Part shown: piece by piece, positions 4,788-36,642 of the stretch
Numbering within the stretch: the first letter of the stretch is position 1
Layout of the letters: every line of letters begins with the position of its first letter
Assembly: GCF_041886205.1 (NCBI RefSeq)
Contig: NZ_CP169029.1
Direction: 5' to 3' (one strand)
DNA: 64,000 bases
DNA from: Escherichia coli
GTDB taxonomy: Bacteria; Pseudomonadota; Gammaproteobacteria; Enterobacterales; Enterobacteriaceae
Notes under the pieces: generated by a model
The model's input: only the letters and a program-made list of their open reading frames with translations
Database searches by the model: none
What the model was told of the DNA's origin: nothing
Position numbers and translations under genes: made by a program

Positions 4788-7214
4788 TTATATTTTTTCG
4801 ATCTCGACCAGATTAGTGTGCTGCGGGTTTCCCTTCGCCAGTGGTGAAGGGCGCAGAGTGGTTAGCGTATTCACACAGCCGCCATGGTCGATTTTATCGC
4901 CAGACATATTGGCCTCGTGCCAGGCTCCCTGGCCCATAGCGCTAACTCCAGGGAGAATACGTGGTGTCACTTTGGCTGGTAGCCGAACTTCGCCACGATG
5001 GTTAAACACCCGCACCATATCGCCGTTGGCAATCCCACGTTTCTGCGCATCTATAGGGTTGATCCACACCTCCTGACGGCAGGCTGCTTTCAGGACATCA
5101 ATGTTGCCGTAGGTCGAGTGAGTACGGGATTTGTAATGGAAACCAAACAGTTGCAGTGGGAAGGTTCTACGTTCAGGGGAGTCCCAGCCTTCAAAGGTAG
5201 AGGCATAAACTGGCAGTGGGCTTATCACTTCATCTTTTTCCAGTTCCCAGGTACGGGCAATTTCCGCCAGCTTGCTGGAATAAATTTCAATCTTACCGGA
5301 AGGTGTTTTAAGTGGATTTGCCTCGGGGTCGTCACGAAATGCTTTGTAGGCGACAAAATGACCATTGGGATCTTTACGCTTATAGATACCCATTTTTTTC
5401 AGTTCGTCGTAAGACGGTAACGCCGGATCTTTGGCAAGCATTTTGGCGTACAGATGTTGTAACCATTGTTCCTGCGTGCGACCTTCAGTGAACTTTTGAT
5501 AGACGTCAGGTCCAAGACGTTTCGCGACTTCACTCAGGATCCAGTAAATCGGTTTGCGTTCGAATTTTTCGCTGGTGACAGGCTGGAGGAAAATGAGATA
5601 TCCCATGTTACCGGCGTAGTCGTTAGGAATAATATCTTCCTGCTCAACGGTCATCAGGTCTGGCAGCAGAATGTCGGCATATTTTGCCGATGAGGTCATA
5701 AAGTTTTCGATGACCACAATCATTTCGCATTTCGATTCGTCCTGCAGAATTTCATGCGTTTTGTTGATGTCAGAATGCTGATTAACGAGGGTATTTCCCG
5801 CGTAGTTCCAGATGAACTTAATGGGCACATCCAGTTTATCTTTGCCCCGGACGCCGTCGCGGATTGCCGTCATTTTGGGGCCATGATCGATAGCATCTGT
5901 CCAGCTGAAGCAGGAAATTGACGTTTTGACCGGATTATCCAGCACCGGCAGGCGCTCTATGGTAATGGTATAGGTCGATTCACGCGCGCCACTATTTCCG
6001 CCGCTGATGCCGACATTGCCCGTCAAAATAGGTAACATAGCAATAGCGCGTGCAGTCAGTTCGCCGTTTGCCTGGCGTTGTGGCCCCCAGCCCTGGCAGA
6101 TATAAGCGGGTTTTGCTGTGCCAATTTCACGCGCCAGTTTGATGATACGGTCCTCCGGGATACCGGTAATTTGCGAAGCCCACTGCGGCGTTTTCGCTGT
6201 TTTATCGTCACCTTCACCAAGAATATAGGCTTTATAGTGACCATTTTTGGGTGCATCTGCGGGTAAGGTTTTTTCGTCATAGCCGACGCAGTATTTATCG
6301 AGAAAAGGTTGATCAACGAGATTTTCGTTAATCAATACCCAGGCAATACCCGCAACCAGCGCGGCATCGGTGCCCGGGCGAATAGGGAGCCATTCGTCTT
6401 CACGACCGGCAGCCGTATCGGTATATCGCGGATCGATAACAATCATTTTGGCGTTCGATTTCTCGCGCGCTTTTTCAAGAAGATAAGTGATGCCACCACC
6501 GCTCATGCGGGTTTCTGCCGGGTTGTTACCAAACATCACGACCAGCTTGCTGTTTTCAATATCCGTGGTGCTGTTGCCATCATTACTGCCGTAGGTGTAG
6601 GGCATGGCACAGGAAATTTGCGCAGTGCTGTAGGAGCCATACTGGTTGAGTGAACCGCCGTAGCAGTTCATCAGGCGTTTGACCGCCGAGGCTGATGGCG
6701 AAGAGCGGGTCATATTGCCGCCAACGATCCCCGAAGAGTACTGAATATATACAGCCTCATTGCCATATTGTTCGACGGTTTTCTTCAGGCTACTGGCGAT
6801 AGTATCCAGGGCTTCATCCCAGCTAATCCGTTCGAATTTGCCTTCGCCGCGTTTGCCCACGCGTTTCATTGGGTAATTCAAGCGATCGGGATGATTAATA
6901 CGCCGGCGGATGGAGCGACCGCGCAAACAGGCGCGTACCTGATGGTTGCCGTACTCATCGCTGCCGGTATTGTCAGTTTCCACCCAGGTCACTTCATTAT
7001 CTTTAACATGTAGACGAAGTGCACAGCGGCTACCACAGTTGACGGAACAGGCACCCCAGACCACTTTTTCGCGGGCCTGTTGTACCGATGCTGCTGCATT
7101 GCGCAGGGTAAACGGCAAAGAAAAACCGCCTGCAGCCAGCGCCAGAGAACCTATCGCGGTAGATTTAACGAGTGTTCTGCGGCTGATGCCCACCATTCGT
7201 TCATTTTTGGACAT
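4788..7214 (-). CDS. ynfE: Tat-exported molybdopterin oxidoreductase catalytic subunit (DmsA paralogue)
   Basis: 808 aa; twin-arginine signal SRRTLVK; CSVNCGSRC motif; colinear paralogue of ynfF directly upstream in the same operon. Confidence 0.9.
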   Translation of the reverse strand: MSKNERMVGISRRTLVKSTAIGSLALAAGGFSLPFTLRNAAASVQQAREKVVWGACSVNCGSRCALRLHVKDNEVTWVETDNTGSDEYGNHQVRACLRGRSIRRRINHPDRLNYPMKRVGKRGEGKFERISWDEALDTIASSLKKTVEQYGNEAVYIQYSSGIVGGNMTRSSPSASAVKRLMNCYGGSLNQYGSYSTAQISCAMPYTYGSNDGNSTTDIENSKLVVMFGNNPAETRMSGGGITYLLEKAREKSNAKMIVIDPRYTDTAAGREDEWLPIRPGTDAALVAGIAWVLINENLVDQPFLDKYCVGYDEKTLPADAPKNGHYKAYILGEGDDKTAKTPQWASQITGIPEDRIIKLAREIGTAKPAYICQGWGPQRQANGELTARAIAMLPILTGNVGISGGNSGARESTYTITIERLPVLDNPVKTSISCFSWTDAIDHGPKMTAIRDGVRGKDKLDVPIKFIWNYAGNTLVNQHSDINKTHEILQDESKCEMIVVIENFMTSSAKYADILLPDLMTVEQEDIIPNDYAGNMGYLIFLQPVTSEKFERKPIYWILSEVAKRLGPDVYQKFTEGRTQEQWLQHLYAKMLAKDPALPSYDELKKMGIYKRKDPNGHFVAYKAFRDDPEANPLKTPSGKIEIYSSKLAEIARTWELEKDEVISPLPVYASTFEGWDSPERRTFPLQLFGFHYKSRTHSTYGNIDVLKAACRQEVWINPIDAQKRGIANGDMVRVFNHRGEVRLPAKVTPRILPGVSAMGQGAWHEANMSGDKIDHGGCVNTLTTLRPSPLAKGNPQHTNLVEIEKI

Positions 7215-14140: not shown

Positions 14141-15989
14141 CGATTTCTTTATCTCTTACATCAGACGAGCGCCGGTTGCAGAATACCAGTCACAACCGGC
14201 GACAGTTGAACATTAAGAATCAGCCTGACTCGGGATCAGTTTTTGCCAGATAGCTGAAACGTATTTTGCCTGGTAACGGGCGTCATCAAGTGCATTATGG
14301 CGCTCACCTTCGAATGGAATAGCCGTTCTGGCATCGAAGTCTATGGCTTTCCCCAGCTCAACGATTGTGCGTACATCGCGATCGTTGTAGTAACGCCACG
14401 GGCAGGGGATCCCCTGCCGTTCGTATGAACGGCGCAAAATCGTGTTGTCGAAGTTGGCTCCATTTCCCCAGACATGAACAAAAAATTCACCGGAGTTTTC
14501 GTCGATAAATTCCCGCAATTGTAACAGTGCATCATCTAACGGGATTTCATCGGTCATAATGGCAGATTGCGCTTCGCGTGATTGTTTAAGCCACCATTTA
14601 ATGGTGTCCCGATCAATGACTCCGCCAGCAGTTTCCAGATCGATAGTCTTACTAAATTCCGGTCCCATATCTCCGGTTTGCGGATCGAAAAATATTGCAC
14701 CTATTGAGATAATCGGGGCATCGGGATTTTTTCCCATGGTTTCAAGGTCGATCATCAGATGAATCCCCGCTCTGCTGGTGGATGTGAGATTATGATGACC
14801 GTTTGCCTTAATTAAGGGATCTGACGCCTCGCCAGTTTCACTATCGCTGGCATGATGCTGATTGCCGCCAGTGTTCTCCTTGTGCTGATGCGCAGTGCCT
14901 TCTATTTCCTCCGGATCATTTTCCTGAACTTCAGGCTGATTCTCTCCATCGAATATTTCCTGGTATGTTGCGTCACCCATCACCGCACCACAATCAGGGC
15001 AGTTGCCGCCACCGCTCTGACCGCAGGCGGTGCAGATCTTTTCCGGTTCCTGTTGCACTACTGGTTCAGGTTGTTTCGTTTCTGGCTCGTTTTGTTGCAT
15101 ATTTGGGCTGTTTTGTTCCGCTTTCTGGTCGTTCTGTTCCGTTTCTTGCTGGTTCTGGTTCACAGAATCGCGGGTCTGGATCCCCTTAATCCATTTCGGA
15201 TCATTCGGGTCGCTAATCCCTTCAACAAATTCACCACGTGATACTGCAAGCAGTTCATCGGCGTCAGGCTGGCTGATATTGGCTGCCTGCATAATTTTGT
15301 TTACTTCGTCAGCGGTAACTTTTACTGACCCTGGTTGTGCGGTCGTGTCAGATGCACCAGTATTTTGTTGTGAACCTGAGTATGTACCGTTTTTGCGGGC
15401 GAAATATTCTTCTTTCGTGATTTCAGTAGCCCCAGCAGACAGCGCCTTATCCAGACCAGAAAGTTTATTTGCGCGACCGTATTTTTCGCCATCCTTGTCG
15501 GTGAAGAGGAAGTAGAACGGCCCCTCACGTTCTACAGATGGTTCGACTTCCACTTTGCATTCGGTTTTTTCGTTGTCTGGAATTGCCGTTTCCACTGCAT
15601 CAGTTTCTGGTACTGGCGACGAGAGAGTATCAGTTGCGCTCTGATTTGTTCCTTCATCTTCAAACACGCCCTTTGTAGTCAGGTATTCAGTAATGTATTT
15701 GTTCAGTGCCACAGGGTCTTTGTGAATGTCGATCGGACGTTCACGGACAAGGCCAAAAATAGTCTGGCGGTCGTAGCGAAGGGCATCAGGCTGTTTGCGC
15801 ATTGATGCCGAGATACGCTTCCAGTCTTCGCGGTCGTTGTCGATAACTTCATTTTTTGCCCAGCGATGGATGCTGCCGTCAATGTTTCCGGCATCCACAT
15901 CACCAGGCCAGAGAGCGTAGGCCAGTTCGTCATCCTGAACCGCCCCGGGAATCCTGGAGACTAAACTTCCTGAGAAAGAGGTAAACAGG

Positions 15990-16316
15990 ATGACTAAAAA
16001 TACTCGTTTTTCCCCCGAAGTCCGTCAACGGGCAGTCCGTATGGTTCTGGAAAGTCAGAGCGAATATGACTCACAATGGGCGACAATTTGTTCCATTGCT
16101 CCAAAGATTGGCTGTACGCCGGAGACTCTGCGTGTCTGGGTTCGCCAGCATGAGCGGGATACCGGGGGCGGTGATGGAGGGCTCACCACCGCTGAACGTC
16201 AGCGTCTGAAAGAGCTGGAACGTGAAAATCGTGAACTGCGCCGCAGTAACGATATCCTTCGCCAGGCTTCCGCTTATTTTGCGAAGGCGGAGTTCGACCG
16301 CCTCTGGAAAAAATGA
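15990..16316 (+). CDS. IS3-family transposase OrfA (HTH)
   Basis: 108 aa [21 protein letters not shown]...; leucine-zipper-like C-terminus. Confidence 0.85.
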
Positions 16317-17203
16317 TGCCACTGCTGGATAAGCTGCGTGAGCAGTACGGGGTCGGACCGCTATGCAGCGAACTGCATATTGCCCCGTCAACGTATTACC
16401 ACTGTCAGCAACAGCGACATCATCCGGATAAACGCAGTGCCCGTGCGCAGCGCGATGACTGGCTGAAGAAAGAGATACAGCGCGTATACGATGAAAATCA
16501 CAAGGTATACGGTGTGCGTAAAGTCTGGCGTCAGTTGTTACGGGAAGGTATCAGAGTGGCCAGATGCACTGTGGCACGTCTCATGGCGGTTATGGGACTT
16601 GCCGGTGTTCTCCGGGGTAAAAAGGTCCGTACGACCATCAGCCGGAAAGCCGTTGCCGCAGGCGACCGCGTAAACCGTCAGTTCGTGGCAGAACGACCTG
16701 ACCAGCTGTGGGTGGCTGATTTTACTTACGTCAGCACATGGCGGGGCTTCGTCTATGTGGCGTTCATCATTGATGTGTTTGCCGGATACATCGTGGGGTG
16801 GCGGGTCTCATCGTCCATGGAAACGACATTCGTGCTGGATGCACTGGAGCAGGCGTTATGGGCCCGTCGACCGTCCGGCACGGTCCATCACAGTGATAAA
16901 GGTTCTCAGTATGTATCGCTGGCCTACACACAGCGGCTTAAGGAAGCCGGATTACTGGCATCAACAGGAAGTACAGGCGACTCGTATGACAACGCGATGG
17001 CGGAGAGCATCAATGGTCTTTACAAAGCGGAGGTAATACACCGTAAGAGCTGGAAAAACCGTGCAGAAGTGGAACTGGCCACACTCACGTGGGTGGACTG
17101 GTATAACAATCGACGATTGCTGGAAAGGCTGGGCCATACTCCTCCGGCAGAAGCAGAAAAAGCTTATTATGCTTCCATCGGAAACGATGATCTGGCAGCC
17201 TGA
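16313..17203 (+). CDS. IS3-family transposase OrfB (DDE integrase core)
   Basis: 296 aa with rve-type DDE domain; overlaps orfA in -1 frame. Confidence 0.85.
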
Positions 17204-18017
17204 GTTCACAGATAAAACACTCTCCAGGAAACCCGGGGCGGTTCATCCAGTGTTTTCCATGTCTGCTTGTATTCGCGATGAATGGCAGCAATGACCGGGT
17301 TGATTTTTCCTGTTGAATTTTCAGTGTGCTGTTGATTGGCTCTGGCACGGGCGAGATCAACAACAGACGTGTATTTTCCGGCTTCCTTGCGTTCACCTTC
17401 GCGACGTTTTTTCCAGATGCGCATCTCTGCCTGAATTTCGGGCCATTTGGCACCAGGCTTACATTTATGCTTAACCCACCCGATGGCATGCAGCTTAAGC
17501 TCCGGATACATAGCGTTAACTTCTGGCATTTTCATCAACGCTTCAACGATATGGCCGTCGAATGTTGCCATGTCTTCCTGCAACAATTCCTGTGCGCTAA
17601 TCACCATATCAACAGTGATGTTTTCACATGTGTCGAACTTAACCATGACAGCGTTCTGTACTTCAGGGGCTAGGTTGTCAAAAGTGACGTTCATCGGATC
17701 GGATTCAGTCTCGACCGGGACAAAGGAAGCAGACGCCTCATCCCAGCGGTTTTCCTGCATATATTCAGCATCCCAGGAATCGAGGGCAGGGCGGGGTATA
17801 CCGGGTTTATCCTCGCAAACAAGAAATTTATAAGCGCAGTCCTGAGCAGCCGGATAATGTTCCAGGAATTGCCAGTGAAATTTTGCGCGGGCGCGACGTT
17901 CATCACCGGCTTCAATGGCAGTGGCTACAGTGAGACGAACTTCGCCGTGCGCTTTCGTGTTGTGTGCCTGCTTTTAACCACGTCAGGCGAGGTGGTATCC
18001 TTAAAATCACCACAGTT

Positions 18018-18593
18018 TTAAGGATTCATTAAGCAATGTCGCAACCACCAATAAATCCGCTTAAGAACATGAAAATTGATTACTGGTATAAAGCGCTTAC
18101 AGTTGTTGGCGCTGCGTTGTTTGTCTTTAATGGAACGTCTTTTTTTGACAGATATCCCGTTGTTCCATTGGATTTTTTGTCCTCCGGCATCTTTTTTATT
18201 GGTTTGGGGGAGTGGATTAATCACCCTCTCAAAGTGAGATTTATTGGTCCTGGAGTTTGGACTCGTGGATATAATCGTTCTTAGTGCGCACTCGGTATCA
18301 TCTTCGACATACTTGGTTGTTTCCTGATTGTTACAGGAGTCGTCAAGTTCTTCTGATGTAAAACCGCAAATGGGGCACGTAACGGGAATTTTGAAAAGCG
18401 TTTCTCCGGGTTCCAGAACAAAATTTTCTGCGGTCTGATTTTGCTTCTCATATTTGTGCTCCGCGTCATTGTGAGAGCACATTCTTATTCTGAGTGCCTG
18501 TTTAAACTCACTGAAGCTGAGAGCTTCTTCGCCTTCGGCAAGACCTTCGAAGTATTCTTCGTAAGCCTTTTCCATGATTGTGTCGAAATCCAT
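18018..18593 (-). CDS. hypothetical phage early protein; C-terminal half doubtful
   Basis: Start at MDFDTIMEKAYEEYF...; first ~110 aa look protein-like, the rest is K/R-rich low complexity and overlaps a plausible plus-strand ORF. Confidence 0.35.
   Translation of the reverse strand: MDFDTIMEKAYEEYFEGLAEGEEALSFSEFKQALRIRMCSHNDAEHKYEKQNQTAENFVLEPGETLFKIPVTCPICGFTSEELDDSCNNQETTKYVEDDTECALRTIISTSPNSRTNKSHFERVINPLPQTNKKDAGGQKIQWNNGISVKKRRSIKDKQRSANNCKRFIPVINFHVLKRIYWWLRHCLMNP
18036..18284 (+). CDS. hypothetical small membrane protein (two predicted TM helices)
   Basis: 82 aa with hydrophobic segments ALTVVGAALFVF and SGIFFIGLGEWI; RBS AAGGA upstream; lies antisense within the 18018-18593 ORF. 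Confidence 0.3.
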   Translation: MSQPPINPLKNMKIDYWYKALTVVGAALFVFNGTSFFDRYPVVPLDFLSSGIFFIGLGEWINHPLKVRFIGPGVWTRGYNRS

Positions 18594-18594
18594 A

Positions 18595-18831
18595 TCACTC
18601 ACCTGAGTTTCTTTCCAGCCAGCGACGGGCACCATTTTCGGTTTTAAACGTTTTGCTTTTGGTATACGTCATCGCGGTGAACGTACCGTCCTGGTTGGGG
18701 AACACGCCACATACCGGAGATTCGCTGTTGCCAAGATCGATAGTATCCATGCTGACCTCATTTCCCCTTAACGCCGGGGTAGCGGAACAAAAACCTGCTG
18801 CATAGTTATTAAAGTTGAACCCTGCCGTCAT
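18595..18831 (-). CDS. hypothetical phage early protein
   Basis: 78 aa ORF; stop overlaps next start (TGAtATG arrangement), suggesting translational coupling. Confidence 0.4.
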   Translation of the reverse strand: MTAGFNFNNYAAGFCSATPALRGNEVSMDTIDLGNSESPVCGVFPNQDGTFTAMTYTKSKTFKTENGARRWLERNSGE

Positions 18832-19047
18832 GTTCTTACGCCTCGGGCTGGCTACTTAACCCCTGACCACTGCCTGGTAACTCGAAGTATTGCCCTGCAT
18901 TCTGTGGGGCGGGGTGGGTGGCAGGCATATAATGTACTTTGCGTTCATTGTTGTAAAGTACTTTTAGTACATTTTGTGTGTAAAAAAATGAGATGGGATA
19001 AAGTGAAGCACAAACCCGGAGGAAGGCGCTACCGGATTTATGCTGGT

Positions 19048-19467
19048 TTAAGAGGCTTTTTGTTTTTTCTTTCGTGCTAACTCTTCGTAAATTGCATTGT
19101 ACTTCTGTTTTTTCTCTTCAAGAGTTTTTAAAAGTTCATCTGTCTCACTGTCAGGGAGCTCGTCCAGAAGGTCAATGATGATTTTTTGTCTTGGATTTAA
19201 CTCCTGATAGAAACGTACCTGTCCACTTTCTTCTGTATCCTCTCCCAAAAGATAGGTTGGTGTTGTTCCTATTAGTGTTGCTAATTCCCTTAATTTCTCC
19301 CGGCGAGGAATTGTTTCGCCATTAAACCATTTGCTAACCGCTTTTGGTGTTAATTTCATTCGACGGGCAATTTCTGCCTGCCTTCCATGTTGTTCATAAC
19401 CAGCGTTTTCACAGGCTAGCGCAAGCCTACTGGCGAACTCTTTACGCGCTTTATCTTCATGAACCAT
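19048..19467 (-). CDS. prophage repressor, XRE-family HTH (RacR/DicA-like)
   Basis: 139 aa; HTH QAEIARRMKLTPKAVSKWFNGETIP; divergent from a Cro-like gene. Confidence 0.7.
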   Translation of the reverse strand: MVHEDKARKEFASRLALACENAGYEQHGRQAEIARRMKLTPKAVSKWFNGETIPRREKLRELATLIGTTPTYLLGEDTEESGQVRFYQELNPRQKIIIDLLDELPDSETDELLKTLEEKKQKYNAIYEELARKKKQKAS

Positions 19468-19546
19468 AAGTTCAATGATATTCGCTCTTGAATGTACTGT
19501 CAGTTCTGTTATAGCATGTACTCAAAGTTCACACTGTGAGGGTGAT
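19468..19546. promoter_or_regulatory. divergent immunity promoter/operator region
   Basis: 79-bp intergenic region between repressor and Cro-like gene; direct repeats TGTACT at 19493-19498 and 19517-19522. Confidence 0.4.
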
Positions 19547-19801
19547 ATGAACCAGAAAACACTTGAAGATGTAATCAAAACTGTTCGCGTTGCTGTTGTG
19601 GCCGACGTTTGTGGTGTCAGCCAAAGAGCAATCTATAAATGGATGGATAACGGAAAATTGCCTCGCACAGAATATACCGGCGAAACAAATTACGCTGAAA
19701 AAATCGCTCTTGCATCAAACGGATTATTTTCTGCCGATGCAATTTTAACTATTGGCAGGAATAAAACTACTACGAAAAAGCTGATGGGAGTTGATTCATG
19801 A
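19547..19801 (+). CDS. Cro-like / YdaS-like small DNA-binding protein
   Basis: 84 aa from MNQKTLEDVIKT...; RBS GAGGG; position opposite the repressor. Confidence 0.55.
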   Translation: MNQKTLEDVIKTVRVAVVADVCGVSQRAIYKWMDNGKLPRTEYTGETNYAEKIALASNGLFSADAILTIGRNKTTTKKLMGVDS

Positions 19802-20223
19802 AAATCAAGCATGAACACATCCGCATGGCGATGAATGCCTGGGCGCATCCGGACGGCGAAAAAGTACCGGCTGCGAAAATTACCAAAGCGTATTTCGAGC
19901 TGGGAATGACGTTCCCGGAACTGTATGACGACAGCCATCCGGAAGCCCTGGCTCGCAATACTCAGAAAATTTTCCGCTGGGTGGAGAAAGACACCCCTGA
20001 TGCGGTTAAAAAAATTCAGGCGTTGTTACCAGCTATCGAAAAAGCAATGCCACCTCTGCTGGTGGCCCGAATGCGCAGTCATAGCTCAGCCTATTTTCGG
20101 GAACTAGTGGAGACGCGGGAACGACTGGTGAGAGACGCTGATGATTTTGTCGCAGTGGCGATCGCTGGTTTCAACCAGATGAATCGTGGTGGCCCTGCAG
20201 GAAATATTGTGGTTGTGCATTGA
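19798..20223 (+). CDS. YdaT-like protein
   Basis: 141 aa starting MKIKHEHI..., third gene of a RacR-YdaS-YdaT-type module; overlaps upstream stop. Confidence 0.5.
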   Translation: MKIKHEHIRMAMNAWAHPDGEKVPAAKITKAYFELGMTFPELYDDSHPEALARNTQKIFRWVEKDTPDAVKKIQALLPAIEKAMPPLLVARMRSHSSAYFRELVETRERLVRDADDFVAVAIAGFNQMNRGGPAGNIVVVH

Positions 20224-20288
20224 CTCGCAATATTCATACCGGATCACTTCCGGCAATTTGTGAGTAAAAAGATTCGGTATCAAAAGAG

Positions 20289-21365
20289 GTGAGTATGGCT
20301 AACGCCTGGCTCAGATTATGGCATGACATGCCAAATGACCCTAAGTGGCGAACAATTGCCAGGGTGTCAGGGCAGCCAATTGCAACAGTGATGGCAGTGT
20401 ATATCCACCTCTTGGTGAGCGCGTCACGAAATGTCACGCGAGGTCACATTGATGTCACGACAGAAGATTTGGCAAGTGCGCTCGACGTGACAGAAGAGGT
20501 AATTGATTCAATTTTGCAGACGATGCAGGGGCGGGTACTTGATGGTGATTTAATCACTGGATGGGAAAAACGCCAGGTGCTTAAAGAGGACAACGGCAAT
20601 ATTTCGCAAACCGCAAAATCTCCTGCAGAGCGCAAGAGGGCGCAGCGAGAGAGGGAAAGAAAGCGGGAACAAAATGGCGATTGTCACGGCGCGTCACGAA
20701 ATGTCACGCACATGTCACGACGAGTCACGACAGATAAAGATACAGATAAAGATACAGATCAAGAAGATCAAAACACTATGGTCCATGGCGTAAAAAACGC
20801 CACGAACCAGGCAGGGGATGTTCAGACCGTCAATCTTGGTCAGCCAGCAGGCACGACACCGGAAGCCGATTCAGCGTATGCGCTGAAAGCCGATTCGGGC
20901 GCTGTGCAGCAGGTGATGACCGCAAGGCCGGAGCAATCACACCAACTGCAGCAGCCCGAAGCCGATTCCGCCATTCAGCGGGAAGCCGATCGGGTAGTCC
21001 CGGAAAACACCGGGCAGTCTGTGGGACGAGTGGATTATCCGGATGTGTTCGAACAGGTCTGGCGGGAGTACCCGTTGCGTGCCGGAGCAAACCCGAAGAA
21101 ATCCGCTTTCAGTGCCTGGAAGGCCAGATTACGCGAGGGGGTGCCACCAGAGGCCATGCTGGATGGCGTGAGGCGTTACGCAAGATACTTGGCGGCTACC
21201 GGGAAAACGGGAACGGAATTTGTTCAGCGAGCGACGACGTTTTTTGGACCGGACCGGAATTTTGAGAACTCCTGGTTGCTCCCGGTAAGCGGCACGAACA
21301 ACCAGCGTTGTGTGAATCATATTTCTGAACCGGATAACGAAATTCCGCCGGGCTTCAGGGGGTAA
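20289..21365 (+). CDS. phage replication initiator / replisome organiser, O-like
   Basis: 358 aa; N-terminal WLRLWHDMPNDPKW motif; the coding sequence contains iterons; GTG start with RBS. Confidence 0.6.
   Translation: MSMANAWLRLWHDMPNDPKWRTIARVSGQPIATVMAVYIHLLVSASRNVTRGHIDVTTEDLASALDVTEEVIDSILQTMQGRVLDGDLITGWEKRQVLKEDNGNISQTAKSPAERKRAQRERERKREQNGDCHGASRNVTHMSRRVTTDKDTDKDTDQEDQNTMVHGVKNATNQAGDVQTVNLGQPAGTTPEADSAYALKADSGAVQQVMTARPEQSHQLQQPEADSAIQREADRVVPENTGQSVGRVDYPDVFEQVWREYPLRAGANPKKSAFSAWKARLREGVPPEAMLDGVRRYARYLAATGKTGTEFVQRATTFFGPDRNFENSWLLPVSGTNNQRCVNHISEPDNEIPPGFRG
20423..20765 (+). repeat. putative replication origin: nine GTCAC(G/A) iterons in two clusters plus an AT-rich tandem repeat
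   Basis: Iterons at 20423, 20433, 20443, 20454 and 20683, 20693, 20703, 20714, 20724 (10-11 bp spacing); then GATACAGATAAA x2.5. Confidence 0.5.
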
Positions 21366-21405
21366 GTGTTAATTTCTGGTCATGAGGTAATTTTCAGGAG
21401 GGCTT

Positions 21406-21828
21406 GTGGCAAAAGTTTTTACACAAGAAGAGCGGGAAAAAATTAAAGGGCAGGTTGTTGAACTCGTACGCCAGAGTGGGCGCGAGACGTTAAGACAACT
21501 GGAAACTAAAACTGGGGCAACAAAATATATGATGAACGTTCTGGCCAGAGAGCTGGTTGCCAGTGGCGATGTATACAACTCTGGTTACGGGTTATTCCCG
21601 TCTGAACAGGCGCGTAAGGACTGGCAAAATGCCCGTAAAAAGCTCTCAAGGGCAAAGCTGAAGAAACCATCTGCGGTTGATCCGGACCTTATCTGGTCAT
21701 TACCTGATGGAGAAATACGTCGTTACGACAGGCGTCATAATATGATTTGTACTGAGTGTCGTAAAAGCGAAGTTATGCAGCGCATATTGTCGTTTTATCA
21801 GGGGGATGTTCGGTATTTATTGAAGTGA
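21406..21828 (+). CDS. hypothetical phage protein
   Basis: 140 aa; GTG start 6 nt after AGGAGG; contains C-x2-C. Confidence 0.45.
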   Translation: MAKVFTQEEREKIKGQVVELVRQSGRETLRQLETKTGATKYMMNVLARELVASGDVYNSGYGLFPSEQARKDWQNARKKLSRAKLKKPSAVDPDLIWSLPDGEIRRYDRRHNMICTECRKSEVMQRILSFYQGDVRYLLK

Positions 21829-22223
21829 CGAGATTAAAGTGCATTAGTTCAGATGCAAATTGACATTTTGTGGCACAGGGTAGAGCTAGCGTGGTTGTCC
21901 GCTTTGTGCCAACAGCGGACATTATGGAAGGTCAGAGTTAAAGATTAAAATGGGATGCTGTGTGTTTTCTCCAGGTTTTGCTCTATACCTTTCGGGATAC
22001 TCCACCGACAGAATACGAAAATCAACATTATCAACGGCTCGAAGTGTCTAGATTATCCATGGCAATTCATGGGAAATCCCATCCAACGGCTTATGCTTCA
22101 TGTTGCTTTTTGAGATCGCTTCTAGCATAGCTCCACTCAATAATGTTGTCGGGTCGTTGCTGATCGAAAAGGATACGGGATTCAATACCATTACCTAAAA
22201 AGCTGGTACCGGAACTCGGGCTG

Positions 22224-23228
22224 GTGGTCGTTAAGCCGGGCCGTGAATCCATGCCGGTATTCCACAATACCCGGGTACTGGTGGAGCCGGAACCGAAAAG
22301 CATGCGTAATCTGCCGTCCGGGGTCGTTCCTGCCGTTCGCCAGCCGCTGGTGGAAGACAAAACATTGCTGCCGTTTTTCAGTAACGCACGGGTAATTCGT
22401 GCTGCTGGTGGTGCTGGTGCATTGTCTGACTGGCTGTTGCGCCATATTAAATCCTGCCAGTGGCCACACGGCGATTATCATCACAGCGAAACCGTTATTC
22501 ACCGATATGGTACCGGCGCAATGGTGTTGTGCTGGCACTGCGACAACCAGCTGCGTGACCAGACATCCGAATCACTCGAGCAACTTGCTCATCAAAACCT
22601 GTCAGCATGGATGATTGACGTCATCGGTCACGCAATAAGCGGTACGCAGGAGCGTGAATTATCTCTGGCTGAATTATCCTGGTGGGCGGTCCGCAATCAG
22701 CTGGCGGACGCGCTACCGGAAGCGGTATTACGTCGCTCGCTGGGATTACCAGCGGAAAAAATCTGCTCGGTGTACCGCGAAAGCGACATCGTACCGGGAG
22801 AGCAGACCGCCACCAGCATATTGAAACAGCGCACAAAAAATCTTGCACCGTTGCCTCACGCCCACCAGCAACAAAACCCATCACAGGAAAAGACGGTGGT
22901 AAGCATCACCGTTGATCCAGAGTCTCCGGAATCTTTCATGAAGCTGCCTAAACGTCACCGGTGGGTTAAGGAGAAATACACACGCTGGGTTAAGACACAG
23001 CCGTGTGCTTGCTGCGGTATGCCAGCCGACGATCCGCATCATCTGATTGGTCACGGGCAGGGCGGAATGGGAACCAAAGCACATGATCTCTTTGTTTTGC
23101 CTTTGTGCAGAAAGCATCACGACGAGTTGCATACGGATACCGTGGCATTTGAAGAGAAGTATGGCTCCCAACTGGAGCTGATTTTTCGATTTATCGATCG
23201 CGCGCTGGCAATTGGTGTGCTGGCCTAA
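22224..23228 (+). CDS. DUF968-type protein with C-terminal HNH-like motif (YdfU/NinG-like)
   Basis: 334 aa; C-terminus [21 protein letters not shown]...[10 protein letters not shown]; directly upstream of Q. Confidence 0.6.
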
Positions 23229-29744: not shown

Positions 29745-30039
29745 CATGTTTATAGTATTAGCATCAATTTCTCATCAGATGCTATTCAACAATACAAATT
29801 ACCCATAAACCTCGTTTTTACGGGGTTTTGTTATATTTAAACATTACCGAATAGATATAAATCTCGATTGTCGATGGTATTGGTTATGTGACAATACCTA
29901 GTCTTTCCGGTATGCCTGAAGAGAATACAAACGACAGATTATGTAAGGGAAACGCGCTGAAACTTTCACTCTTTCATGCTGAGTGATTTGACGTTATATT
30001 TTTAGCCGCAAGTGAAGAGCAAACGAATGGAGCGACAAA

Positions 30040-30907: not shown

Positions 30908-31507
30908 ATGCGTAAACTTTATGCCGCCATTTTGTCCGCAGCCATTTGTCTGGCCGTATCCGGTGCGCCTGCATGGGCATCTGAACATCAGTCCACGCTG
31001 AGCGCGGGGTATCTTCATGCCTCGACGAACGTTCCCGGCAGCGATGATCTTAACGGGATTAACGTGAAATACCGTTATGAGTTTACGGACACACTGGGGC
31101 TGGTGACGTCATTCAGCTATGCAGGAGACAAGAATCGCCAGCTTACCCGTTACAGCGATACCCGCTGGCATGAAGATTCCGTGCGTAACCGCTGGTTCAG
31201 CGTGATGGTGGGGCCGTCTGTGCGCGTGAATGAATGGTTCAGCGCGTATGCGATGGCGGGTGTGGCTTACAGCCGTGTGTCGACTTTCTCCGGGGATTAT
31301 CTCCGCGTAACTGACAACAAGGGGAAAACGCACGACGTGCTGACCGGAAGTGATGACGGTCGCCACAGCAACACGTCTCTGGCGTGGGGAGCTGGCGTGC
31401 AGTTTAACCCGACCGAATCCGTGGCCATTGATATTGCTTATGAAGGCTCCGGCAGTGGCGACTGGCGCACTGACGGTTTCATCGTGGGTGTCGGTTATAA
31501 GTTCTGA
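30908..31507 (+). CDS. lom: Ail/Lom-family outer-membrane beta-barrel protein
   Basis: 199 aa; signal peptide; alternating beta-strand pattern ending ...GVGYKF; sits before stf as in lambda. Confidence 0.8.
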
Positions 31508-31565: not shown

Positions 31566-34043
31566 GTGAATATGGCAGTAAAGATTTCAGGTGTACTGAA
31601 AGACGGCACAGGAAAACCGGTACAGAACTGCACAATCCAGCTGAAAGCAAAACGTAACAGCACCGCGGTGGTGGTGAACACGCTGGCCTCAGAAAATCCG
31701 GATGAAGCCGGGCGTTACAGCATGGACGTTGAGTACGGTCAGTACAGCGTTATTCTGTTGGTGGAAGGATTCCCGCCGTCACATGCCGGGACCATCACCG
31801 TGTATGAAGATTCCCGACCCGGTACGCTGAATGATTTTCTCGGTGCCATGACGGAGGATGATGCCCGTCCGGAGGCTCTGCGACGTTTTGAACTGATGGT
31901 GGAAGAGGTGGCGCGTAACGCGTCCGCAGTGGCACAGAACACGGCAGCCGCGAAGAAGTCAGCCAGTGATGCCAGCACATCTGCCCGTGAGGCGGCAACT
32001 CATACAACCGATGCTGCAGGCTCAGCTCGTGCCGCCAGCACGTCAGCCGGACAGGCTGCATCATCTGCTCAGTCAGCATCTTCCAGCGCAGGAACGGCAT
32101 CAACAAAGGCCAGTGAAGCATCGAAAAGTGCTGCTGCTGCAGAGTCCTCAAAAAGCGCGGCGGCCACCAGTGCCGCTGCGGCGAAAACGTCAGAAACGAA
32201 TGCGGCAGCGTCACAACAATCAGCAGCCACTTCTGCATCCGCCGCGACCACGAAGGCGTCAGAAGCTGCCACCTCAGCCCGGGATGCGGCGGCCTCAAAA
32301 GAGGCGGCAAAATCATCAGAAACGAGCGCAGCCTCGAGCGCCAGTAGTGCAGCCTCCTCGGCAACAGCGGCAGGAAATTCCGCGAAGGCGGCAAAAACGT
32401 CCGAGACGAACGCTAAGTCTTCTGAGACGGCAGCAGCACAGAGTGCCTCCGCAGCAGCAGACTCAAAAACAGCGGCTGCCTCATCTGCCAGCGCCGCGTC
32501 AACAAATGCCGGGCAGGCCTCAGCCAGTGCCACCGCCGCCGGAAAATCGGCAGAAAGTGCTGCATCGTCCGCTTCAACAGCCACAACGAAGGCTGGCGAA
32601 GCCGCTGTACAGGCCAGCGCAGCAGCGAGGTCTGCTTCCGCAGCGAAGACATCCGAGACGAACGCGAAAGCGTCGGAAACCAGCGCAGAATCCTCAAAAA
32701 CGGCTGCCGCATCGTCCGCCAGTTCGGCGGCGTCATCGGCATCATCGGCGTCTGCTTCAAAAGATGAGGCGACCAGACAGGCGTCAGCAGCAAAGGGCAG
32801 CGCCACGACGGCATCCACGAAGGCGACAGAGGCAGCTGGCAGTGCGACGGCGGCAGCTCAGAGCAAAAGTACGGCGGAATCCGCGGCAACGCGCGCCGAG
32901 ACAGCGGCAAAACGGGCAGAGGATATTGCATCCGCCGTGGTGCTTGAGGATGCGAGCACGACGAAAAAGGGGATAACCATGCCACAGGCGAGTTCTGTTG
33001 TTTCAATTACGTTGATTGGTGGTGCGGGATTTAACGTGGGGTCACCTCAACAGGCAGGTATATCTGAACTTGTTTTGCGTGCAGGTAATGGTAATCCGAA
33101 GGGGATTACTGGTGCTTTATGGCAGCGCACATCGACAGGGTTTACAAATTTTGCCTGGGTCAATACATCTGGTGATACTTACGATATTTACGTTGCAATC
33201 GGAAATTATGCGACTGGTGTAAATATTCAATGGGATTATACCAGTAATGCCAGCGTGACGATTCATACGTCACCAGCATATTCTGCTAATAAGCCGGAAG
33301 GGTTAACGGACGGTACAGTTTATTCACTCTATACGCCATCAGAGCAGTTTTATCCGCCTGGCGCACCAATCCCGTGGCCATCAGATACCGTTCCGTCTGG
33401 CTATGCCCTGATGCAGGGGCAGACTTTTGACAAATCTGCATACCCGAAACTTGCAGCCGCTTATCCGTCAGGCGTGATCCCTGATATGCGTGGCTGGACG
33501 ATTAAGGGCAAACCCGCCAGTGGTCGTGCCGTATTGTCTCAGGAACAGGACGGCATTAAATCGCACACCCACAGCGCCAGCGCATCCAGTACGGATTTGG
33601 GGACGAAAAACACATCGTCGTTTGATTACGGAACCAAATCCACGAATAACACCGGGGCGCATACCCATAGTATTAGCGGGACTGCAAATAGTGCCGGTGC
33701 GCACCAACACAAGAGTTCCGGTGCATTTGGTGGCACGAACACGAGCATTTTCCCTAATGGTTATACCGCGATTTCAAATCTAAGCGCGGGGATTATGAGC
33801 ACAACAAGCGGTAGTGGCCAGACTCGTAATGCAGGGAAGACATCATCAGATGGTGCTCATACCCACTCGCTGTCCGGCACTGCTGCAAGCGCAGGCGCAC
33901 ATGCACATACTGTCGGTATTGGTGCTCATACGCACTCCGTTGCGATTGGTTCACATGGACACACCATCACCGTTAACGCTGCTGGTAACGCGGAAAACAC
34001 CGTCAAAAACATCGCATTTAACTATATTGTGAGGCTTGCATAA
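31566..34043 (+). CDS. side tail fibre protein Stf
   Basis: 825 aa; conserved N-terminus [20 protein letters not shown]; long Ala/Ser-rich repeats with KTSETNA units; C-terminal GAHTHS repeats; ATG at 31572 is the likely true start. Confidence 0.85.
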
Positions 34044-34618
34044 TGGCATTCAGAATGAGTGAACAACCACAGACCATAAAAATTTATAATCTGCTGGCCG
34101 GAACTAATGAATTTATTGGTGAAGGTGACGCATATATTCCGCCTCATACAGGTCTGCCAGCAAACAGTACCGATATTGCACCGCCAGATATTCCGGCAGG
34201 CTTCGTGGCTGTTTTCAACAGTGATGAGGCATCGTGGCATCTCGTTGAAGATCATCGGGGAAAAACCGTCTATGACGTGGCTTCCGGCGACGCGTTATTT
34301 ATTTCTGAACTCGGTCCGTTACCGGAAAATGTTACCTGGTTATCGCCGGAAGGGGAGTTTCAGAAGTGGAACGGCACAGCCTGGGTGAAGGATACGGAAG
34401 CAGAAAAACTGTTCCGGATCCGGGAGGCGGAAGAAACAAAAAACAACCTGATGCAGGTAGCCAGTGAGCATATTGCGCCGCTTCAGGATGCTGCAGATCT
34501 GGAAATTGCAACGGAGGAAGAAATCTCGTTGCTGGAAGCATGGAAAAAGTATCGGGTATTGCTGAACCGTGTTGATACGTCAACTGCACAGGATATTGAA
34601 TGGCCAGCACTGCCGTAG
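34043..34618 (+). CDS. tail fibre assembly protein Tfa
   Basis: 191 aa; start overlaps the stf stop; typical Tfa N-terminus ([21 protein letters not shown]). Confidence 0.8.
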
Positions 34619-34715
34619 GGTAAAACATATAAATTCTATAATTAGATGTATCTTTCCATTTACGGCAAGGAAGGGGGCTTGGAACACGTAAAGCATCTCA
34701 CACCGAGATTATTTT

Positions 34716-35306
34716 TTATATGTCAGGTGTCTGAAGTTTTGCTTTGGCTCTTAAAATGGTTTGCCGCGAGGTTTTGAATTCCCGGGCAATGGCACTTATA
34801 CTTACACCTGACTTAATTCGTTCGAATACCACCTGTTTCTGTTCTTCATTTAACACAGGTGGTCGACCAAAACGTTTCCCTGCGCCGCGGGCTCTTACTA
34901 TCCCGGAATGAGTGCGTTCAAGTAAAAGGTCTCGTTCAAATTCAGCGACTGCTGAAATTACTTGCATCATCATTTTTCCTGTTGGACTGGTCAGGTCAAT
35001 GCCACCCAATGCTAAGCAATGCACTCTGATACCTGTTTCGGTCAGTTGTTCCACTGTTTTCCTGATATCCATTGCATTACAACCAAGGCGATCCAGTTTT
35101 GTCACAATCAATTGATCACCACATTTCAGGCGAGCAAGCAACCGGTTAAAACCAGGACGCTCACTGGTTGCTGCTGAGCCGCTAATGTGTTCTTCGATTA
35201 TTTGCTGAGGTTTGATTTTAAAACCTGCACTTTCGATTTCCCGGCGTTGATTTTCGGTGGTCTGATCCAGCGTTGATATCCGACAGTAAGCAAAAATTCG
35301 AGACAT
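34716..35306 (-). CDS. serine recombinase / DNA invertase (Pin/Gin/Hin family)
   Basis: 196 aa [20 protein letters not shown]... with catalytic Ser and C-terminal HTH. Confidence 0.9.
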
Positions 35307-35623
35307 AGTGAGACTCTATTCGAAATTGGTGTTCATATCATAATGCATCTCAGAAAATAATTATGATTATTTTTGTGCATATTTGTATGTACACGTTCGA
35401 AAATAAACGAATGCGTATGCAACCCCGTAATTTTTGGTGAGACCCAAAATCGATTTTGTGAAAAATGGCTTTAACTTGGTTTGTTTTTCGAGTTCCGGGC
35501 GGGCTCAAGGAAGAAGAATAGTGTTGCGTGTTATTTTAACCAGATTTCAAGTTGTTTGGACGTGGAAAAGTGGAGCAAAATGTTGTTAAAGTGGAAAAAT
35601 GATAAAAAAGTAAGTTTATTATA

Positions 35624-35857
35624 TTACATTTTACCATTTAAATTTTGGTTGTCTTTAAGAACTGATATCGCTGTTTGTAATAATTCTTTGTTATCCAGCC
35701 ATGATTTTTTCTTTATGTTTCCTTCAATGTAATCAAGCAATGTTCTGGTATTAATAGGTCTTCCCTGTTTTGCTACTTCCACTACAGCATCCCCTAGGAT
35801 AATTCTTACTTCAGGAAGCTGCGCAGGGAACCACTTAAGGGTGTCTTTTGATTTCAT
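35624..35857 (-). CDS. ydfK: YdfK/YnaE-family small protein
   Basis: 77 aa from MKSKDTLKWFPAQLPEVRIILGD...; last gene before the right junction. Confidence 0.75.
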   Translation of the reverse strand: MKSKDTLKWFPAQLPEVRIILGDAVVEVAKQGRPINTRTLLDYIEGNIKKKSWLDNKELLQTAISVLKDNQNLNGKM

Positions 35858-36642
35858 GAAGATATTCCTTAAAATATTATTGATTTTCATTGCGATATTG
35901 TATGTCTGATTCAGGATATGTTGACTTATACATCGGTTTTGTCTGGGTTATTGGATATGCCAATCCCTAATTTTATTAGGGCATGACTAAAAATGCTGAA
36001 TATGATAAGGAGAGAAGTGATTATCAGTATGCTGTTCATATAGCCTCGAATTAGTAATGTGTTATATATGATATAGTTGACAATTTTTATCTTGGGTGTT
36101 TTTAAAGTTCGTAGATAAACATTGTCGTTTCAGGTATACAGGAATGCTAGCAGGTGGCAGCAAAAATCAGGCGGTTTATGGCGCAAGCTGAAGCGGCAAC
36201 TGCAAACTATCTTATGCAGAGACTCTACACGGATTGGGTTTAAAAGTATACATAGATAACAGTTTTTATCTGAAAAAGAAAAATATCAAGGTGATATAGC
36301 CTATATGCCTTTGATGCGGAGGAATGACTGTGATGGGAGTGATGTATCTGAATAGTTGAAAAAACGCAGACACGCCTTATGCAAGAACGTGCTGCGGTTG
36401 GCTGGTAAATTTTTCGATAGTGTGAGTATTGAATGATTTCCAGCCGTTCTTGATTTTACGCATAAATCCATGAAAAAACTACTTATCTGTTGGGGAGTTT
36501 TTTTGGGGCATATATGGGACAGAAATAGGCCCCAGATAGACACTGAGATCGAACTTAGGATGCTTTTTAAAAAATGCAACTATCTGAAAAAACCTAGAAA
36601 ACGCCAAGGAAACCACAGGATGGGAAAAAACACCTGTGAATT

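Follow-up and report, generated by a model that had tools for sequence, protein, structure and literature searches.

A pin gene beside the tail-fibre genes of a Qin-type Escherichia coli prophage is probably an orphan resolvase gene of Tn3-family origin

The pin locus and the search for an invertible segment

The subject of this analysis is the pin gene found next to the tail-fibre genes stf and tfa in a 64-kb stretch of Escherichia coli DNA (contig NZ_CP169029.1; "the window" hereafter designates this entire stretch). The portion of the window between 28 and 38 kb corresponds to the right end of a Qin-type cryptic prophage. Its genes follow one another in the order J tail-tip fragment, lom (30908-31507), stf, tfaQ, pinQ, ydfK, ynfT and truncated host gene ydfJ. 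The gap between tfa and pin measures exactly 97 bp (34619-34715), and pin lies on the strand convergent with stf and tfa. The features of the locus, with the evidence for each in brackets, are:

31566-34043, plus strand: stf, side tail fibre, 825 amino acids (open reading frame; alignment with other Stf proteins; inverted-repeat test)
34043-34618, plus strand: tfaQ, tail fibre assembly, 191 amino acids, the sole tfa of the window (open reading frame; tblastn)
34619-34672, no strand assigned: phage DNA, the 54 bp on the 3' side of tfa (alignment with HannyBb, mEp460 and Tritos)
34673-34710, plus strand: relic of a Tn3-family transposon's right-hand terminal inverted repeat, reading GGGG(3-bp deletion)GCTTGGAACACGTAAAGCATCTCACACCGAGATT where an intact copy reads GGGGTCCGCTTGGAAAACGGAAAATATCCCACGCTAAG
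34716-35306, minus strand: small serine recombinase gene of the pinQ/pinR type, probably tnpR-derived, 196 amino acids, intact (open reading frame; domains; alignments)
35624-35890, minus strand: ydfK, a gene of the phage b region, always linked to pin (open reading frame; contiguity of the junction in genomes)

The pin product contains the Pfam domains Resolvase and HTH_7. It is 100% identical to PinR, encoded by the Rac prophage of strain K-12, and differs at 2 residues from PinQ, encoded by the K-12 Qin prophage. Both K-12 genes have the neighbours found here (stf, tfa, pin, ydfK/ynaE, ynfT/ynaM), and the 97-bp spacer of Rac and Qin is the same as that of the window except for one base. The fibre genes, in contrast, differ in length, StfR being longer than the 825-amino-acid product of the window and stfQ being much shorter (963 bp, about 320 amino acids). 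In K-12 this is a textbook locus; the gene was known before, and a 2025 paper has already treated it as an orphan.

The first-pass annotation of this DNA had described one stf/tfa pair, a 97-bp gap and a pin gene without an evident invertible segment; every detail of this description was borne out by the open reading frames, by tblastn and by the site scans. Searches with Stf, Tfa, TfaE, TfaP, Mu U, PinE, Gin and PinQ (tblastn) returned one stf, one tfa and one serine recombinase gene in the 64-kb window. The C-terminus of Tfa is related to TfaE and Mu U. Comparison with e14 and Mu found no segment in the window with two alternative fibre C-termini and opposed tfa genes.

Crossover sites were sought using real sites from K-12 e14 and Mu as controls. 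The gix/hix/cix/pix consensus had 0 matches in the 64 kb at up to 3 mismatches. The AAACCNNGGTTT core occurred 32 times in the window against 34.9 occurrences expected, that is, at chance frequency; two core candidates, at 29807 and 33763, were rejected since their outer half-sites do not match. An inverted-repeat search of the 28-38 kb region yielded only matches of 70-85% over 19-28 nucleotides. Finally, every 26-mer of both pin flanks was compared to the reverse complement of stf and tfa, with composition-preserving shuffles as reference. The best inverted 26-mer matched at 18 of 26 positions, a score reached by 40 of 100 shuffles, whereas the e14 and Mu controls scored 22/26 and 26/26, respectively; by this test stf has no crossover site within it. 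Thus, the search for gix/hix-like inverted repeats that had been proposed along with the initial description ended with both the consensus test and the 26-mer test negative.

The genomic record was equally uniform. Of 5,426 complete E. coli genomes, 2,750 carry pin at a coverage of at least 80%. A query across its junction with ydfK matched 2,874 genomes to some extent, and in 2,753 of them the match was contiguous. A query spanning the tfa-pin junction returned three classes: full-length matches, matches breaking at window position 34507, and, where a prophage lacks pin, matches to tfa only. None of the matches listed broke in the spacer, these listings being samples of the ranking rather than exhaustive tables. 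Likewise, no orientation isomers, as judged by both pin junctions, were seen in the sampled listings for the 5,426 genomes. The same type of search with the e14 P segment does reveal an inverted isomer, in strain S17-1, where the edges of the matching piece (query 87-1925) coincide exactly with the span between the e14 repeat arms. In the literature, natural inversions are reported for e14 and not for Qin or Rac (Kirigo et al., NAR 2025, PMC12529663). With the best 26-mer at chance level and no isomers among complete genomes, the suggestion that recombination sites lie inside stf and elsewhere did not hold.

These data bear on the possibility of a cryptic but active local switch, in which diverged sites in stf and in the spacer or upstream of pin would allow low-frequency inversion of the stf 3' part and tfa, with or without pin. 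Nothing positive speaks for such a switch, except that the sites of serine recombinases can be short and degenerate, so that a negative scan is no absolute proof of their absence. With a single stf 3' end and a single tfa, inversion could do no more than disrupt the gene, and in the sampled listings neither the tfa-pin nor the pin-ydfK junction varies across thousands of genomes. Together with the chance-level 26-mer score and the literature on Qin and Rac (PMC12529663), this makes an active local switch most improbable.

Two further observations concern the same genes. The stf gene of the window has suffered an in-frame deletion of 163 amino acids compared to the 988-amino-acid allele of other strains (alignment including the mEp460 Stf). 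The deletion junction lies at 32960-32990 (...STTKKGI/TMPQASS..., the slash marking the joint) and repeated KGIVQLSSATNSTSE shaft motifs were removed; the longer allele (+492 bp) is in the majority among close genomes. In NZ_CP025892.1, the tfa-pin match starts at window position 34591, 28 nucleotides before the tfa stop, unlike every other class seen. This break is probably due to a deletion or an insertion sequence.

Transposon relics around pin

PinQ has in common with the Fis-dependent invertases Gin, Cin, PinE and Hin the small serine recombinase fold and the C-terminal helix-turn-helix, and its gene lies beside phage tail-fibre genes, as do those for Gin, Cin and PinE. Among proteins of solved structure, Gin is its best match (105 bits versus 82 for gamma-delta resolvase). 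Nonetheless, PinQ stands well apart from this group. Its identity is 36.1% with Gin and 37.7% with PinE, compared to 78.5% between those two, and the invertases of P1, HK225 and D6 are 35-37% identical to PinQ; the high mutual identity of the Hin/Gin/Cin/Pin family, whose members cross-complement, thus does not extend to it. Furthermore, gin and pinE point the same way as the constant portion of the fibre gene, whereas pinQ is convergent with stf and tfa, and the paired 26-bp inverted sites (AAACC-NN-GGTTT core, one of the two adjoining the invertase gene), alternative fibre half and natural isomers of the Gin/Cin/PinE/Hin systems were not found at pinQ. ISXc5, judging from the title of a 1998 study cited in PMC7157771, is reportedly a precedent for transposon resolvases that are more invertase-like than Tn3/gamma-delta-like. 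The PinQ clade is likewise invertase-like in sequence.

The first lead to a different origin came from a weaker nucleotide match on the E. coli plasmid pUTAK-3, which encodes a recombinase 83% identical to PinQ at 160 bp from, and divergent to, a Tn3-family transposase. A complete 3.8-kb element of this kind is present on another E. coli plasmid, pRM10386-2. It consists of a 38-bp inverted repeat, tnpA, a 160-bp res region, tnpR and the second repeat, the latter lying immediately 3' of the tnpR stop codon. Related elements were found in other hosts. Shewanella baltica carries five copies, with a homologue 79-80% identical to PinQ located 160 bp from an intact 994-amino-acid transposase gene; the element spans 3,815 bp, has perfect 38-bp repeats and is flanked by 5-bp target duplications in 2 of the 4 copies examined. 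A cargo-carrying relative in Klebsiella encodes an 80%-identical homologue, again 160 bp from an intact 994-amino-acid transposase gene. The transposase scores 1220 bits against NF033527, the NCBIfam model for Tn3 transposases (cut-off 500). The transposon is designated only "Tn3 family" at NCBI and is absent under the names ISSod9, Tn5403 and ISEc63 in PMC7157771.

Alignment of the window with the transposon (blastn) showed 81.7% identity over positions 34671-35386, extending from 82 bp 5' of the tnpR start codon as far as the right repeat's tip, where the homology stops. Within the 97-bp spacer, the repeat relic retains 33 matches in 43 ungapped positions beyond the 3-bp deletion; none of 100,000 shuffles reached 33, the maximum being 24. 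Of the 38-bp repeats bounding the element (GGGG...ACGCTAAG), the right end is therefore present but decayed while the left end is absent. All chromosomal pinQ and pinR copies share the same boundaries on the element. No tnpA relic was found in the window or in phages: the tnpA gene that lies across res from the 79-85% identical homologues has no counterpart here. Overall, the TnpR proteins of this unnamed transposon (pRM10386-2, pUTAK-3, Shewanella, Klebsiella) resemble PinQ in length (196 amino acids) and in sequence (79-85% identity), and the promoter, the res-proximal region and the terminal inverted repeat after the stop codon are homologous in both settings. The copy in the window differs in lacking tnpA and the left repeat, in the truncation of res subsite A and decay of subsites B and C, and in a cysteine at position 76 and a relaxed selection (see below). 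Since a transposon end 3' of pin fits capture by the phage only, the direction of transfer, from transposon to phage, is clear. The repeat relic also contains a hairpin followed by a T-run (ATCTC-ACACC-GAGAT-TATTTTTT), which was considered as a terminator for tfa and set aside as the terminator scan did not call it.

The pin module is not confined to cryptic prophages. Proteins 99-100% identical to PinQ are encoded by the isolated lambdoid phages mEp460_ev081, 2H10, Tritos, HannyBb, Kati, Turner and the PhiR series. In mEp460_ev081, the order is J, lom, stf, tfa, 97 bp, pin, ydfK, attP and int. Because this viable phage has the single stf/tfa layout too, the layout does not result from prophage decay. 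Tritos and HannyBb have unrelated fibre genes, yet they retain pin, the spacer (including the 54 bp next to tfa) and the last 112 bp of tfa; homology breaks at window position 34507, inside tfa, and BL21 and CFT073 share this breakpoint. The persistence of the 112-bp tfa end beside unrelated fibres indicates that the joint for fibre-module exchange lies inside the conserved 3' end of tfa and not at a gene boundary.

The first-pass annotation had read the locus as a degenerate switch of the Mu G, P1 C or e14 P type. In that scenario, a second stf 3' half with its tfa and the crossover sites would have been lost and the invertase left behind, which would account for a gene annotated pin lying beside stf and tfa in the manner of gin, cin and pinE, and for the relationship of the Tfa C-terminus to TfaE and Mu U. 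But the 36-38% identity to Gin and PinE, the convergent orientation, the lack of site relics, the derivation of the pin flanks from a Tn3-family tnpR end up to the repeat tip, the same layout in viable phages and the preservation of the pin module in phages with unrelated fibres all contradict it, and we regard such an ancestry as extremely unlikely.

Additional transposon remnants were identified on the other side of pin by aligning seven upstream regions, from four transposon copies, the tnpA-less plasmid pAPEC-O1-ColBM and two prophage copies. The transposon res comprises three dyad subsites built on TGTCCGAAA: A (26 bp) by tnpA, B (32 bp), and C (19 bp) by tnpR, the last coming after a TATAAT box. 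The corresponding features of the window are:

35317-35335, minus strand: decayed res subsite C, just 5' of the pin start, TGAACACCAATTTCGAATA; transposon form TGTACACCCATTTCGTACA (alignment)
35336-35346, minus strand: putative -10-like element of the tnpR promoter region, predicted from sequence alone, GCATTATGATA; transposon form GCATTATAATA
35348-35379, minus strand: decayed res subsite B, 32 bp, TGCACAAAA-N14-TTTCTGAGA; transposon form TGTCCGAAA-N14-TTTCGGACA
35394-35419, minus strand: location of res subsite A, presumably crossover site I (alignment)

Subsites B and C of the window keep 6-7 of 9 positions per half-site, and the residual internal dyad of B registered as a self-hit in the repeat scan. 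In subsite A, only the pin-proximal half-site is recognisable (35394-35402, TTTCGAACG), and the homology to the transposon ends there. The three-subsite res is thus represented by recognisable but decayed B and C and by half of A, and none of them passes an intact-site scan. A scan for paired res-type half-sites gave nothing above shuffle level in the window and in 40 kb of two viable phages, while finding transposon subsites A and B at 17-18 of 18 positions. Neither the region upstream of pin nor the spacer was found a second time in the window or in the phages.

The tnpA-less arrangement has a parallel in pAPEC-O1-ColBM, an IncF ColBM plasmid that has kept tnpR, res and the right inverted repeat (5877-6637 of the extracted segment). 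There, transposon homology starts from subsite A, with 2 of 12 positions changed in the outer half of that subsite, a pattern expected from res recombination with a different element. The plasmid gene adjoins a RelE/ParE toxin-antitoxin pair and an iron ABC transporter. It was also observed that the central 8 bp of subsite A are exactly reverse-complemented between Shewanella (CTGACCGG, 5886-5911) and Klebsiella (CCGGTCAG, 5887-5912; coordinates of the extracted segments), the flanking half-sites holding their positions despite the reversal of the core. This may reflect the polarity of the crossover core.

The retention of res relics upstream of pin, and the 99-100% conservation of the gene in viable phages, could be taken as signs of a working phage resolvase, for which the diverged res would serve to separate dimers, either of the phage genome in circular form or of a plasmid-like state. 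The tnpR-res unit of pAPEC-O1, devoid of tnpA, has indeed a layout typical of plasmid multimer resolution. In the phage module, however, the outer half of A is missing, the half-sites keep 6-7 of 9 positions and none passes the paired-site scan; moreover, PinQ has a cysteine at position 76. Lambdoid phages package their DNA from concatemers and do not need dimer resolution. A resolvase at work in the phage cycle is therefore improbable, if somewhat less so than the two switch scenarios.

The catalytic arginine and reported action in trans on e14

Inspection of the protein alignment revealed that the motif LDRLGR, otherwise invariant, reads LDRLGC in PinQ. The cysteine, Cys76, aligns without gaps with the corresponding arginine of Gin and with R71 of gamma-delta resolvase. 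It results from a CGT to TGT codon change and is also present in K-12 PinQ and PinR. Among the 120 closest cluster representatives, the motif was found in 117, and 112 of these have the arginine; the five with cysteine comprise the PinQ/PinR clusters and a second prophage lineage 85% identical to them. The other catalytic residues (Y7, R9, S11, E39 and R73) are kept, so that the full set (Y6, R8, S10, D36, R68 and R71 in Tn3 numbering) is complete but for R71, replaced by Cys76. In Tn3 resolvase, R71 ranks among the six residues judged most critical, and the changes R71A and R71K abolish resolution in vivo and lower cleavage about 1000-fold (PMC2794168).

Comparison of the two Cys76 lineages gave a ratio of nonsynonymous to synonymous substitution rates (dN/dS) of 0.34; transposon copies compared to one another gave 0.07-0.09, and comparisons of the Cys76 lineages to the transposon copies about 0.15. 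Constraint on the Cys76 lineages thus appears relaxed, yet present. The estimate is complicated by mosaic alleles, two of which were identified in prophages. One has a transposon-type gene body, with Arg76, inside phage-type flanks (5001-5591 of the extracted segment); in the other (38-628 of the extracted segment) the 5' half is of the transposon type and the 3' half is identical to PinQ. These alleles indicate ongoing gene conversion between the tnpR genes of plasmid-borne transposons and the pin genes of prophages. From Cys76 and the relaxed constraint, we infer that PinQ may be at best a very weak recombinase, and that its remaining activity would most likely consist of DNA binding at its own relic sites, resulting in autoregulation.

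A considerably more active role has been proposed on experimental grounds. PinQ and the near-identical PinR are reported to invert the P segment of e14 in trans, blocking T2 adsorption (PMC12529663); this work, by Kirigo et al., is the only experimental function on record for PinQ. Cells deleted for pinQ become more sensitive to T2, and the effect depends on stfP, stfE and e14 (PMC12529663). On the other hand, deletion of pinE locks the P segment in the non-inverted state although pinQ and pinR are present (PMC12529663). The same paper lists the trematode Clonorchis sinensis as having a protein more than 90% identical to PinQ ("PinQ recombinases are widespread"); this entry looks like bacterial contamination of a eukaryotic assembly.

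The main rival to a transposon relic with little or no catalytic activity is, accordingly, that PinQ directly inverts the e14 P segment at pix, leading to production of an StfE2 fibre that blocks T2 adsorption, and that the gene is kept for phage defence. The K-12 experiments, with 88% inversion, T2 sensitivity and dependence on stfP, stfE and e14 (PMC12529663), speak for this view, and the protein of the window is identical to K-12 PinR and 2 residues away from PinQ. In addition, an outer T-TC and an A-tract are common to the half-sites of res (TGTCCGAAA) and of pix (TCTCGAAAAC, TCTCCCAAAC). Set against this are the cysteine at the position equivalent to catalytic Arg71, the 38% identity of PinQ to PinE and its descent from a resolvase. 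Moreover, in view of the effect of the pinE deletion (PMC12529663), the PinQ effect may be indirect or specific to overproduction.

The distribution of the two loci does not match either. While 51% of genomes (2,750 of 5,426) have pinQ or pinR, only a few per cent have a P segment of the K-12 type with pinE: coverage of this query reached 80% or more in 170 genomes, and identity 99% or more in 280 records. The 64-kb window contains no pix-like site, and in NZ_AP045833.1, the closest complete genome, icd is directly followed by iraM with no e14 there, which is no more than suggestive since that genome differs from the window by 7.2 kb. Related invertible segments with PinE-like enzymes are common among genomes, and for this reason PinQ could still have a target in trans. 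On balance, direct inversion of e14 by PinQ strikes us as rather unlikely. We would entertain, with slightly less reserve and still only tentatively, the idea that PinQ and PinR are exapted resolvases devoid of the catalytic arginine and kept as DNA-binding autoregulators or as non-catalytic modulators of Gin-family invertases such as PinE, the e14 phenotype being indirect.

Several points weigh against viewing PinQ as a near-inactive relic. Overproduction of PinQ reportedly raises inversion of the e14 P segment to 88% and deletion of pinQ lowers it (Kirigo et al. 2025, PMC12529663), which implies some PinQ activity in vivo. The effect of replacing R71 was measured on Tn3 resolvase and carries over to PinQ only by analogy. 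With dN/dS at 0.34, below 1, and an unbroken open reading frame in about 2,750 genomes, the gene has probably kept some function. The recognition helix is nearly unchanged between PinQ and the transposon enzyme, and the decayed subsites might still bind PinQ. Lastly, the designation of subsite A as the crossover site is suggested, rather than proven, by its tnpA-proximal position and by the breakpoint in pAPEC-O1-ColBM.

Outside the pin region, the prophage of the window extends from about 12.4 to 36.6 kb and has no head genes, the J fragment being the only tail gene apart from the fibre module described above. NZ_AP045833.1 differs from the window by 7.2 kb (15936-23137), which it lacks. This part includes an IS3-family element (transposase open reading frame 16313-17203) at the end of a recE-like exonuclease open reading frame, followed by genes for a cI-like helix-turn-helix repressor, a YdaT-like protein, and DUF977 and DUF968 proteins. 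A 357-bp piece (17243-17599) matches the deletion junction of NZ_AP045833.1.

Probable origin and significance of an orphan recombinase gene

The simplest account of these data begins with a Tn3-family transposon of about 3.8 kb, which would have inserted 54 bp on the 3' side of tfa, in the b region of an ancestral lambdoid phage of the Rac/Qin/mEp460 type. The element would since have lost tnpA and its left inverted repeat, together with the outer half of the subsite presumed to serve for crossover. What survives would be tnpR with the decayed right inverted repeat on one side, in the 97-bp spacer, and, on the other, the promoter, res subsites C and B and one half of subsite A. As a single, truncated and decayed res without a partner in the window or in viable phages, the remnant leaves nothing local to invert or resolve; hence, for want of a local recombination substrate, stf and tfa are found in one orientation only. 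Any biological effect of PinQ would then be exerted in trans. We estimate at roughly 80% the probability that pinQ is an orphan tnpR captured from a Tn3-family transposon rather than a descendant of a fibre switch, with no local substrate and at best a very weak recombinase for a product.

Within the limits of incomplete full-text coverage, no statement that PinR or PinQ derives from a Tn3-family resolvase was found in the literature. The transposon origin, the repeat relic in the spacer and the loss of the arginine were likewise not found in the literature searched, and we consider them modestly interesting.

A transposon origin explains the missing switch, since the gene still carries a transposon end and part of res. 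The gene concerned is carried by roughly half the complete E. coli genomes as well as by viable lambdoid phages. Its probable origin also calls for caution in annotation: the labels "pin", "DNA invertase" and "invertase from lambdoid prophage Rac" are now attached to transposon resolvases across Enterobacterales. Similar caution applies to PinQ-catalysed inversion of e14 as a phage defence, given that the arginine is missing and that deletion of pinE locks the segment. If PinQ and PinR are indeed resolvases exapted to a non-catalytic role, the published phenotype of e14 inversion by PinQ would be indirect and not catalysed by PinQ itself.

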